A DNA stretch of 24,000 nt from an uncultured Actinomycetes bacterium (GTDB taxonomy: Bacteria > Actinomycetota > Acidimicrobiia > Acidimicrobiales > Acidimicrobilacustridaceae): NCBI GenBank assembly GCA_963793025.1, contig CAWBYL010000001.1, positions 266,454 through 290,453 on the forward strand. The letters run 5' to 3'. The position numbers and the translations under genes were made by a program. The notes beneath the pieces were generated by a model, which ran no database searches, had not been told where the DNA came from, and saw only the letters and a program-made list of their open reading frames with translations. Shown here one piece after another: positions 14,036-17,142 of this stretch (position 1 is the stretch's first letter; every line of letters starts with the position of its first letter).

Positions 14036-15166
14036 TCAGGCCCACGCCTCCGCCACCGACCGACGAAAGCCGTCGTAGGTCCCGGCGGCGATGGCCACTC
14101 GGGCCCGGTCGATGAGCCCCAGCAGCCAGTGCACGTTGTGGATCGTGGTGAGGCGGGCCACGGTCGGCTCCTGCACCATCAGCAGGTGGCGCAGGTACGC
14201 CCGGGACCAACGGGCGCAGGTCGAGCAGGTGCAGCCGGGCTCGAGGGGCTCGGGGTCGCGAGCCCACTGGGCGTTGCGGAGGTTCAGGCGGCCCTGGGTG
14301 GTCAGGATGGTGCCGTGGCGGGCCAGGCGGGTGGGCAGCACACAGTCGAACATGTCGATCCCGAGGGCGACGGACTCCACGATGCTCACCGGGTCCCCGA
14401 CCCCCATGAGGTACCGGGGCTGGTCGTTGGGCAGCTCGGCGGTGGTGGCGGCGAGGGCGGGCAGCATCTCGTCGCGGGTCTCACCCACCGAGAGTCCGCC
14501 GATGCCGTAACCGTCGAAGTCGAGCTCGACGGTGCGACGCGTGCTCTGCACCCTCAGGTCGACGTCGATCCCGCCCTGCACGATCCCGAACTGCGCCTGC
14601 GTCGACCCCTCGGACCGAGCCGGAGCGTGGGCCGCCTTGGCCCGTCGCGCCCACAACGCCGTGCGGTCGACGGCGGCCTGGATCACCGACCTCTCCGACG
14701 GGAGCGGGGGGCACACGTCCAACACCATCTGGATGTCGCTCCCCAACGCCTGCTGGATGGCCACGCTGCCCTCGGGGGTGAGGTGGTGGGTACCGCCGTC
14801 GTAGGTGCTGCGGAAGGTTGCGCCCTCGTCGGTGACCTTCGGCTCCAGCGAGAAGACCTGGTAGCCGCCGGAATCGGTCAGGACGTGGCCCTTCCAGTCG
14901 GCGAAGCCGTGGAGGCCGCCCAGCTCGGCGATGAGGTCGGCTCCCGGCTTGAGCATCAGGTGGTAGGTGTTGCCCAGGATCACCTCGGCGCCGAGGTCCT
15001 CGAGGTCGGCCGAGGAGAGCGTGCGCACCACGGCCCGGGTGCCCACCGGCATGAAGCACGGTGTGCGGAACGTTCCCCGGGCGGTCGTGACCATACCGGT
15101 GCGCGCCGCGCCGTCGGTGGCCGACGGCGAGAAGCGCAGGACGTGGTCGGGGTCGTCGGATGTCAC
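14036..15166 (-). CDS. tgt: Queuine tRNA-ribosyltransferase (tRNA-guanine transglycosylase, 376 aa)
   Basis: Track ORF with a GTG start at 15166. It shows FMPVGT, LGNTYHL, LTDSGGYQVFS, GIGGLSVGE and the zinc motif CTCSTCARWSRAYLRHL. Confidence 0.95.
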   Translation of the reverse strand: MTSDDPDHVLRFSPSATDGAARTGMVTTARGTFRTPCFMPVGTRAVVRTLSSADLEDLGAEVILGNTYHLMLKPGADLIAELGGLHGFADWKGHVLTDSGGYQVFSLEPKVTDEGATFRSTYDGGTHHLTPEGSVAIQQALGSDIQMVLDVCPPLPSERSVIQAAVDRTALWARRAKAAHAPARSEGSTQAQFGIVQGGIDVDLRVQSTRRTVELDFDGYGIGGLSVGETRDEMLPALAATTAELPNDQPRYLMGVGDPVSIVESVALGIDMFDCVLPTRLARHGTILTTQGRLNLRNAQWARDPEPLEPGCTCSTCARWSRAYLRHLLMVQEPTVARLTTIHNVHWLLGLIDRARVAIAAGTYDGFRRSVAEAWA

Positions 15167-15220
15167 GGGCGGGCAATCTAGGCCGGACCAACGCGGCCGT
15201 CGGTGAGGGAGCGTCCCGGA

Positions 15221-16027
15221 TCAGGTGGCGAGGGTGCCGCCGTAGATCTGCCAGGCGAGGGCGCTCTTGGCCACCAGGCTGAGCACCACGTACACCTTCT
15301 CGCCATACAGATAGTCGGCGAAGCGTCCCTTGCCCCGATACTGCAGCCACTGGTTGAGGGCGAAGCAGTTGAAGAGCAGGAACAGCGTCACGAAGATCAC
15401 GTAGACGAAGGTCGGAACTCCTTCGCCCTCGCTGTTGGTCTGCGAGGTGACGAGGGCGATGGTGATCACGATCCAGGGCACCGCGCCGGCGATGCACCCG
15501 AACACGAACGGCCACCAGTTCACGCGGTCCCGAGTGCGGTTGACCTGCTCCATCACCAGCCCGAACAGGATCATCGAGGCGTTGACCCCGAAGAGGGCGA
15601 TGACGGCGTACAAGTTGGTGATCCCGGTGAGCAGACCGATCAGCACGATCATCAGGGAGGCGCTCACCGAGTACTCGACCCAGCGGGCCACGTTGAGCCC
15701 CCGCAGGAGGTTGGCCTCGTACCACCCCCGGACGCCGGGCGCGGCGACCAGCAGGTGGTCGGCGGCGGCGAGGAACAGGAACACGGCGATGCCGAGGGGC
15801 AGGCTGAAGTCGAAGAACGTCGTCGTCACCGTGAGCGGGGAGCCCGGCGGTCCGGTCTGCACGGCGGCCACGATCGGGATGGCGAACGAGGCACTGATGA
15901 CGAGGATGACCACGCCCTGGACGAGATGAGCCAGGCCGACCCCGAGGTTCCAGACGCGGAGGTTGTCGAGGCGATCGCGCTGGTCCGGGGTCGGATCGAC
16001 GGCAGCTTCGTCGTCAGGTGTCACCAC
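15221..16027 (-). CDS. Heliorhodopsin (7-TM retinal-binding protein, inverted topology; 268 aa)
   Basis: Track ORF with a GTG start at 16027. Seven hydrophobic helices are visible. Several blocks match what I recall of heliorhodopsin 48C12:
- RWVEYSVSASLMIVLI (48C12: RWVEYSLSSSVMIVLI)
- FGVNASMILFG
- FGCIAGAVPW
- FALNQWLQYRGKG
- VLSLVAKSALAWQIYGGTL (48C12: VLSLVAKSALAWQIFSGTL)

The candidate Schiff-base Lys is K254 (codon 15266-15268). The counterion-position Glu is E118 (15674-15676). His residues sit at 34 and 91. K/R cluster in the N-terminus and in loops 2-3, 4-5 and 6-7, which implies N-terminus in and C-terminus out. Confidence 0.9.
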   Translation of the reverse strand: MVTPDDEAAVDPTPDQRDRLDNLRVWNLGVGLAHLVQGVVILVISASFAIPIVAAVQTGPPGSPLTVTTTFFDFSLPLGIAVFLFLAAADHLLVAAPGVRGWYEANLLRGLNVARWVEYSVSASLMIVLIGLLTGITNLYAVIALFGVNASMILFGLVMEQVNRTRDRVNWWPFVFGCIAGAVPWIVITIALVTSQTNSEGEGVPTFVYVIFVTLFLLFNCFALNQWLQYRGKGRFADYLYGEKVYVVLSLVAKSALAWQIYGGTLAT

Positions 16028-16086
16028 GGGACTCGACCGTAGGTCCGTCTCGGGAGCCGATGTCGGGTCGAGGGGCCAGCAGTCGG

Positions 16087-17142
16087 TCAGTCCTGCGGCG
16101 ACCGGGACAGCAACATGGCGTCGCCGAAGGAGAGGAACCGGTACTCATCGGTGAGGGCCTCGTCGTAGAGGTGACGCCACCGCGGGCCCACGAAAGCGTC
16201 GATCATGACCAGCAGCGAGGACCGGGGCATGTGGAAGTTGGTCAGCAGACGATCGACCACCTGGAACTCGAAACCCCGACGGATGAACAGGTCCGTGCGG
16301 CCCTCCGGTCGGCTTGTCGCCGCCGCGCTCTCGAGGGCGCGGACGGCGGTGGTACCCACTGCGACCACCCGACCGCCGCCGGCTCGGGTGCGCCGGCAGG
16401 CCTCGAGCGTGGCCCGCGGCACCCGGTAGGTCTCGGCGTGCATGACGTGGTCCTCGACCCGGTCAGCCACGATCGGTCGGAAGGTGCCCAGCCCCACGAC
16501 CAGCTCGACGTCGGCCCGCTCGACGCCCGTGTCGAGGCAGCGTCGGAGGACGTCGTCGGTCAGGTGCAGCCCCGCCGTCGGGGCGGCCGCCGACTCGGGG
16601 CGATCGGAGAAGACGGTCTGGTAGCGCTCGGGCTCCTCCAGGGCAGCCGTGATGTAGGGAGGCAGCGGGAGGACGCCGCGACGTTCCAGCACGTCGAGCT
16701 CGTCGCCGTCGGTGTACAGCTCGATCACCCGTCGACCCTCGCCGAGGTCATCGCCGATGGTGACGACGAGATCGTCGCCCTCAGCCGGGCGGACCTCGGT
16801 GCCTGGTGGCAGCCGCCGGCCGGGACGCACGAGCGCCTCCCAGGTCGAGGAGGCTGCCGAAGCGGCGTCGGCGTCTGCTGGGGTTCGCCGTTCCAGCAGC
16901 AACACCTCCACGGCGCCCCCGGTCGATTTGCGCAGTCGGAGCCGCGCCGGGAGCACCCTGGTGGTGTTGAGCACGAGGAGGTCACCCGGATCGAGCAGAT
17001 CAGGCAGGTCGCGCACGATGCGGTGCGAGGCCGTCCGGCCAGGACCTTCGTCGACCAGCAGGCGCGCCGCGTCCCGCTCAGCGAGCGGCCGCTGGGCGAT
17101 GCGCGCCGCGGGCAGGTCGTAGTCGAAAGCGTCGGTCTCCAC
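16087..17142 (-). CDS. queA: S-adenosylmethionine:tRNA ribosyltransferase-isomerase (351 aa)
   Basis: Track ORF with a GTG start at 17142: METDAFDYDLPAARIAQRPLAERDAARLLV, NTTRVLPARL, PLPPYI, AAPTAGLHLT, VGTTAVRALES, FHMPRSSLLVMI. Confidence 0.95.
   Translation of the reverse strand: METDAFDYDLPAARIAQRPLAERDAARLLVDEGPGRTASHRIVRDLPDLLDPGDLLVLNTTRVLPARLRLRKSTGGAVEVLLLERRTPADADAASAASSTWEALVRPGRRLPPGTEVRPAEGDDLVVTIGDDLGEGRRVIELYTDGDELDVLERRGVLPLPPYITAALEEPERYQTVFSDRPESAAAPTAGLHLTDDVLRRCLDTGVERADVELVVGLGTFRPIVADRVEDHVMHAETYRVPRATLEACRRTRAGGGRVVAVGTTAVRALESAAATSRPEGRTDLFIRRGFEFQVVDRLLTNFHMPRSSLLVMIDAFVGPRWRHLYDEALTDEYRFLSFGDAMLLSRSPQD

Follow-up and report, generated by a model that had tools for sequence, protein, structure and literature searches.

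The window considered here is a stretch of 24,000 nucleotides (nt) from contig CAWBYL010000001.1 (positions 266,454 to 290,453 of assembly GCA_963793025.1) of an uncultured actinobacterium of the order Acidimicrobiales, in which a heliorhodopsin (HeR) gene is found between queA and tgt, two genes of queuosine tRNA modification. The source genome (G000, genus g1) comprises 4.2 Mb on 9 contigs, is 81% complete and has a G+C content of about 70%; it contains a single copy of HeR. Pfam assignments give the gene order ruvC, ruvB, DUF559, queA, HeR, tgt, yajC, secD, secF, apt and relA. An earlier note, drawn up from the letters of the stretch alone, had placed queA, HeR and tgt on the minus strand with gaps of 59 and 54 nt, and both Pfam and direct reading of the sequence agree with this placement (Table 1). 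The three genes all end in TGA; the stop codon of HeR lies in the same frame as the GTG start of tgt, and no start codon occurs between the two. In the E. coli-type operon, queA, tgt, yajC, secD and secF succeed one another in that order. The same five genes are found here in the same order and on one strand, whereas a 0.9-kb HeR unit splits queA from tgt and tgt has a -10-like element of its own. Compared with most members of the family, the overlapping stop and start codons of queA and tgt are also lost: the two genes are 924 nt apart with HeR in between, an organization that differs from adjacency or translational coupling under one promoter.

The HeR gene is intact and its product, judged by its residues, is a standard member of its family. 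It scores 315.3 bits against the PF18761 profile (curated cut-off 26.7), covers positions 1-242 of the 242 of that profile, and aligns over its full length with 48C12 (6SU3; E 2.9e-65) and TaHeR (6IS6; E 1.3e-59). The Schiff-base lysine of the seventh transmembrane helix (K254, motif LVAKSAL) corresponds to K241 of 48C12, the glutamate counterion (E118, motif RWVEYS) to E107, and the retinal-pocket residues H34, H91 and S250 to H23, H80 and S237. Like 48C12 and TaHeR, the protein is of similar length and possesses the conserved Lys, Glu, two His and Ser; it differs from both by an N-terminal extension of 22 residues, and from 48C12 by an Ala at position 87 where the latter has Ser76. Whereas these two proteins have solved structures (6SU3, 6SU4 and 6UH3 for 48C12, 6IS6 for TaHeR), the HeR of the window is known from its sequence alone. 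A hydropathy scan revealed overlapping hydrophobic stretches compatible with a multi-pass membrane protein, the seven-transmembrane inverted topology being assigned only by homology to 6SU3. We infer that it is an ordinary, functional, retinal-binding photoreceptor of inverted topology, and that it probably acts as other HeRs do, as a slow-photocycle light sensor modulating a partner protein. This partner is not identifiable from the queA-tgt locus.

The distribution of the gene and of its placement was examined in 87 species genomes representing 23 genera of this Acidimicrobiales family, and at about 190 HeR loci (30 family loci, the best 80 from 185,579 species genomes and the best 80 metagenome loci). 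Of the 87 family genomes, 52 carry HeR, and these represent 11 of the 23 genera, while queA and tgt orthologues are present in 81 and 80 of these genomes, respectively. Only three of the loci examined have HeR between queA and tgt, namely those of G000, of G039 (OZ257146.1, genus g3) and of metagenome contig L140; at the level of the family, two HeR-bearing genomes have HeR in this position and the other 50 keep it elsewhere. The order in G039 is queA-HeR-tgt-yajC, and its HeR, the closest relative of the window copy, is 80-81% identical to it. L140 carries, between queA and tgt, a WS/DGAT gene, HeR (72% identity) and a gene for a YGGT-family membrane protein, and its HeR adjoins neither queA nor tgt. 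Whether queA-HeR-tgt is conserved among relatives had been left by the earlier note to comparative genomics; the arrangement proves to be confined to three lineages of one clade. In a tree of QueA and Tgt, G000 (g1), g2 and g3 form a single clade (support 97/97), and L140 falls among g3. The HeR tree roughly mirrors this topology: the copies of G039 and L140 are sisters and that of G000 joins at an unresolved node, and a tree constrained to unite the three HeRs in one clade was not rejected (p-AU 0.55).

The G+C content at third codon positions (GC3) is 0.93 for HeR, 0.94 for tgt and 0.87 for queA, against a genome mean of 0.90 (standard deviation 0.033; 2308 coding-like open reading frames, ORFs). 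The neighboring DUF559 gene, at 0.82, is unlike HeR in this respect, and both the native codon usage of HeR and the deviating one of DUF559 had been recognized in the earlier note. Moreover, G000 and G039 have diverged to a similar extent in HeR (80% identity) and in Tgt (82%). Because of its native GC3, of a tree that matches that of QueA and Tgt and of this parallel divergence, HeR is supported as native to the family lineage and not recently acquired, again as had been proposed. If a foreign HeR cassette had recently been transferred horizontally into a housekeeping operon, the event would find a precedent in the foreign or mobile cargo that the same position takes elsewhere (DUF222/HNH, an insertion sequence (IS)-like fragment) and in the DUF559 element next door. 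Nevertheless, HeR groups with the HeRs of the family and its borders have neither repeats nor an integrase; with GC3 and the trees also opposed to it, this scenario was rejected as highly improbable. HeR probably entered the queA-tgt position once, before the split of g1 and g3.

The ruvB-queA-tgt-yajC backbone is found family-wide, and what lies between queA and tgt varies. In most genera the two genes are 15-100 nt apart or overlap as ATGA/GTGA, an overlap that indicates translational coupling. The question of whether relatives lacking HeR have queA abutting tgt is answered in two ways: close or overlapping genes are the rule in most genera, but other relatives hold unrelated cargo in this position (Table 1). 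The slot is without HeR in G035, G036, G037 and G038, all of which retain queA and tgt. An antisense ORF of about 150 amino acids (aa), conserved in three g3 species (MRxCLVxAHQTLDSP...; L111 3393-3866, L112 2942-3370 and L126 1-488), is one such cargo. Another is ppnP, encoding a 97-aa pyrimidine/purine nucleoside phosphorylase (PF06865), which occupies a gap of about 400 nt in three g2 genomes (L116-L118; G013, G025 and G001); the gap measures only 27-39 nt in other g2 species. In G039 and its near-identical sister species G038 the flanking DNA is 91-93% identical, yet between the last queA codons and CCCGGTAGATT before tgt the contents have been cleanly swapped. The segment is 0.9 kb with HeR in G039 (L031, 5885-6805) versus 4.3 kb in G038 (L113, 3533-7878), where it encodes, on the opposite strand, a protein of 737 aa with a CarboxypepD_reg domain and a membrane protein of 548 aa. 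Repeats or att-like sites were looked for at the borders of these two cassettes and none were seen. A HeR fragment on contig C8 of G038 was considered as a remnant of the slot copy and rejected, as it is a different HeR (65% identity) cut by the end of the contig. Given this swap and the unrelated cargo, the queA-tgt junction is a variable slot in which HeR is one cargo among others, with turnover between sister species as well.

The signals preceding each gene were analyzed with reference to mycobacteria, in which promoters favor TANNNT between -6 and -13 as the -10 element and show no -35 consensus, and in which leaderless transcripts make up about 24% of the total (PMC6448022). We counted TANNNT located 6-9 nt upstream of an in-frame start codon. 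In the source genome the motif precedes 12.8% of first in-frame starts versus 0.15% of internal ATG/GTG codons. Among 68 distinct upstream regions of HeRs (at least 62% identity), 57 have the motif in frame, none have it in either of the other frames, and shuffled sequences yield 1.4; it also precedes 33 of 81 more distant HeRs of actinobacteria and Chloroflexota. The HeR of the window has TACGGT at this position, and that of G039 has, at the aligned position, TACCGT followed by 7 nt and ATG, in a spacer of which the rest is recognizably homologous. The motif of tgt, CCGGTAGATTCCCGGCCGTG, is kept in G035, G037, G038 and G039 whatever the upstream cargo, L140 has TAGCGT followed by 8 nt and GTG, and genomes in which queA overlaps tgt lack the motif. 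Family-wide, TANNNT precedes 6 of 22 tgt starts, those being members of the clade of the window genome, and it is found in frame before 16 of 21 queA starts. The hexamer before queA in the window stands 11 nt from the start, outside the 6-9 nt range, and its assignment is weaker than those for HeR and tgt; in G039 and G038, TAGCCT likewise stands 11 nt from the start.

No Shine-Dalgarno sequence was found upstream of HeR, tgt or queA. As in the leaderless promoters of actinobacteria described by Martini et al. (2019, PMC6448022; TANNNT as -10, no -35, leader not exceeding 5 nt), HeR and tgt have TANNNT 7-8 nt before the start and lack a Shine-Dalgarno sequence and a -35 consensus. Those promoters were mapped, whereas the present ones belong to an uncultured lineage of Acidimicrobiales and their activity is deduced from the statistics of the sequence. 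The statistics suggest that HeR normally carries its own promoter and is leaderless in any context, that queA likely heads its own transcript, and that tgt gained a promoter of its own in the clade of the window genome, which would have made the slot tolerant of insertions. The earlier note had seen no obvious terminator in either gap, and a scan of positions 13000-18500 for sigma-70 promoter and intrinsic terminator consensus likewise returned none, such a scan being uninformative for an actinobacterium of 70% G+C. An imperfect hairpin in the queA-HeR spacer (z = -2.77 in the source genome) was set aside as a terminator because it is not conserved in G039 (z = +0.75).

Table 1. Features of the queA-HeR-tgt locus (window coordinates) and cargo found between queA and tgt in relatives.
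Feature	Location	Strand	Remarks
tgt, queuine tRNA-ribosyltransferase, 376 aa	14036..15166	minus	Pfam TGT PF01702, E 1.4e-140
HeR-tgt spacer, 54 nt	15167..15220	minus	No significant structure, z = +0.89
TAGATT, -10-like hexamer	15175..15180	minus	Putative leaderless promoter of tgt and downstream genes; 8 nt upstream of tgt GTG; CC(G/T)GTAGATT...GTG
Heliorhodopsin (HeR), 268 aa, intact	15221..16027	minus	Pfam PF18761, E 3.1e-94
queA-HeR spacer, 59 nt	16028..16086	minus	Aligns with the G039 spacer
TACGGT, -10-like hexamer	16036..16041	minus	Putative leaderless promoter; 8 nt upstream of HeR GTG
queA, S-adenosylmethionine:tRNA ribosyltransferase-isomerase, 351 aa	16087..17142	minus	Pfam Queuosine_synth PF02547, E 1.3e-108
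TACGCT, -10-like hexamer	17154..17159	minus	11 nt upstream of queA GTG
Two 59-nt palindromic hairpins flanking DUF559	17162-17220 and 18233-18291		Copies 88% identical
DUF559 gene (17219-18184) within hairpin-bracketed element	17162..18291	minus	PF04480/PF18741; between ruvB and queA
Slot cargo: antisense ORF of about 150 aa	G035, G036, G037		No Pfam match
Slot cargo: DUF222 protein	G035		Besides the antisense ORF
Slot cargo: 4.3 kb, two reverse-strand genes	G038		
Slot cargo: WS/DGAT + HeR + YGGT	L140		
Slot cargo: SnoaL cyclase-like gene	G040		
Slot cargo: antisense ppnP	Subset of g2		
Slot cargo: ADH + IS-like fragment	G084		
Slot cargo: 286-aa ORF	G069		

The earlier note had suggested that HeR is co-expressed with the queuosine and Sec genes, and possibly with the Ruv genes, and that this reflects a light-linked role in one of these processes. 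In a functional operon of this kind, HeR would be co-transcribed with queA and tgt, and with yajC-secDF as well, and would modulate queuosine tRNA modification or Sec translocation according to light, in parallel with the pairs that HeR forms with glutamine synthetase, photolyase or an ABC transporter. HeRs are indeed known to regulate proteins encoded beside them (PMC11109279; PMC9769723 for TfHeR-photolyase), and the single strand, the short gaps, the lack of a terminator consensus and the persistence of the arrangement in G000 and G039, with an expanded form in L140, all speak for such an operon. As in the glutamine synthetase, photolyase and OmrDE ABC exporter pairs (PMC11109279, PMC9769723), HeR shares the strand of its neighbors; in contrast to those pairs, its association with queA/tgt is labile and confined to one clade. 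These two genes recur beside HeR in three related lineages only and not in G038, where HeR has been replaced; four relatives keep queA and tgt in the absence of HeR from the slot, the HeR of L140 touches neither gene, and nearly all HeR-bearing genomes of the family place HeR elsewhere. Furthermore, queA and tgt are outside the ten recurrent HeR neighbor groups of Cho et al. (2024; PMC11109279), and the HeR context analysis of Bulzu et al. (2021) does not mention them (PMC8612252). The latter study accepted as candidate operons only genes of one strand separated by less than 10 bp (PMC8612252), a distance that the gaps of 59 and 54 nt exceed. Comparison of the genomes gives no support to co-expression with the queuosine and Sec genes or to a light-linked role tied to them, and the conserved -10 signatures before both HeR and tgt, with a less well placed one before queA, partly contradict these proposals; we regard the functional operon as decidedly unlikely. 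It is, in our judgment, very unlikely that light-dependent regulation of Tgt/QueA (tRNA queuosine) or of YajC-SecDF by HeR is what has kept it next to tgt from a time before g1 and g3 separated.

A weaker form of dependence would involve expression only: HeR would owe its place to a steady basal expression supplied by read-through from the constitutive queA promoter, or to its own transcription feeding tgt-yajC-secDF, with no interaction between the proteins. The absence of a terminator between queA, HeR and tgt is compatible with such hitch-hiking, as are the homologous spacers that precede HeR in G000 and G039 and the leaderless -10 motif that usually precedes queA, from which such transcription could start. 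The -10 signature of HeR, however, accompanies the gene in this context and in others alike, the cargo of the slot in relatives is often antisense, so that the position does not generally serve co-transcription, and the sister species G038 swapped HeR out altogether. As a full account of the arrangement, hitch-hiking appears rather doubtful to us.

The reading that we favor, with a probability of roughly 0.7, is that an ordinary, self-promoted HeR settled, before g1 and g3 diverged, in a slot whose cargo keeps changing, and has remained there. Ancestrally, queA and tgt would have been translationally coupled behind one leaderless promoter before queA. In the common ancestor of g1 and g3 this coupling would have been broken, opening a lineage-specific slot; tgt would have acquired a separate -10 element (TAGATT, at 7-8 nt from its GTG), and the interval from queA to tgt would have come to tolerate cargo. 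HeR would form an autonomous unit in this slot, equipped like HeRs almost everywhere in the clade with a leaderless -10 of its own (TACGGT-N8-GTG), and this promoter most likely drives the bulk of its transcription. With no evident terminator, transcription may still run on to some extent from queA into HeR and from HeR into tgt-yajC-secDF.

Several considerations weigh against this reading. The related genomes compared are not independent samples, and the source genome is only 81% complete. TANNNT is a motif of low information, and the argument drawn from it relies on position, frame and conservation. The HeR-tgt spacer is devoid of a terminator-like hairpin, such that read-through into tgt-yajC-secDF, and with it partial co-expression, is possible. 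Finally, at least three lineages have retained HeR at this position ever since g1 and g3 parted, over about 20% protein divergence, which may reflect a selective benefit of the position. We nonetheless consider that the proximity of HeR to queA and tgt is best read as inherited history and not as evidence of a function in queuosine modification, Sec translocation or Ruv-related processes. Since the slot swaps its contents and HeR has a promoter-like signal of its own, the neighborhood probably says little about what HeR does.

On the other side of queA, the boundary with the ruv genes is occupied by the DUF559 gene and its two flanking hairpins (Table 1), which together look like a small hairpin-bounded mobile unit. 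For the palindrome adjoining queA the folding energy is -48 kcal/mol (z = -4.44). Further palindromes stand alone on contigs C2, C3, C6 and C9 of the source genome, and DUF559 paralogues (36% identity) are found on contigs C5 and C9. The same DUF559 gene lies between ruvB and queA in G036, G038 and G069. Two strong hairpins and a gene interposed between ruvB and queA speak against a transcript common to queA-HeR and the ruv genes, and the co-expression of HeR with Ruv genes that had been envisaged is not borne out. Farther away, at the left end of the window, positions 3-1259 encode a protein with a KdpD sensor domain and a Usp domain. Several long ORFs picked in the flanks of the window have no Pfam match and are probably spurious frames in high-GC DNA.

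The source of the chromophore was sought in the genome as a whole. The earlier note had found no retinal-synthesis gene in the window, which is correct, and had called for a genome-wide search for blh and crt genes. Profile searches of the entire 81%-complete genome detected no BCD/blh, no SQS_PSY (phytoene synthase, crtB) and no type-1 rhodopsin; the phytoene synthase model matched in 8 control genomes, and the blh search works because it retrieved the gene from 2 of the 87 family genomes, both of genus g22 and both also HeR-bearing. The only retinal-forming candidate found in the genome is one carotenoid-cleavage oxygenase of the RPE65 family (contig C9:527277-528629, L131; E 1.1e-108). Retinal could be scavenged or be produced through oxidative cleavage by this RPE65-type enzyme. 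As 50 of the 52 HeR-bearing genomes are without blh, the origin of retinal is a question for the whole family and not a quirk of the source genome.

Elsewhere, HeR is found in other settings. All 34 genomes of genus g2 possess HeR in a different, conserved context comprising an F420-type oxidoreductase-like gene (recognized by eye only), a carboxyl transferase, a 5'-3' exonuclease, HeR, a 302-aa ORF and an ABC exporter. At four other Acidimicrobiales loci (L041, L042, L050 and L057), HeR directly follows a gene for a 276-aa regulator with helix-turn-helix and B12-binding domains (PF12728 + PF02607 + PF02310, CarH/LitR-like), an association that would bring two different light-sensing modules side by side. 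Published HeR neighbor groups include ABC transporters, MerR and SDR (PMC11109279), and some family contexts match them (ABC exporter, SDR and MerR-type regulator). Our literature search found no paper linking heliorhodopsin with queuosine, and the queA-HeR-tgt arrangement appears to be undescribed so far.

Hypotheses about the physiological role of HeRs are drawn mainly from gene neighborhood. Were HeR to regulate Tgt/QueA or YajC-SecDF after all, tRNA modification or protein export would join the short list of HeR-controlled processes. The prevalence of apparently self-promoted leaderless HeRs, in the Acidimicrobiales and in about 40% of distant actinobacterial and Chloroflexota cases, argues instead against equating adjacency with co-transcription. 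The queA-HeR-tgt order is best read as historical contingency, and it illustrates how a tidy-looking operon can mislead: the placement of HeR is real and old, yet it lies in a slot that swaps its cargo, and HeR carries a promoter signature of its own.

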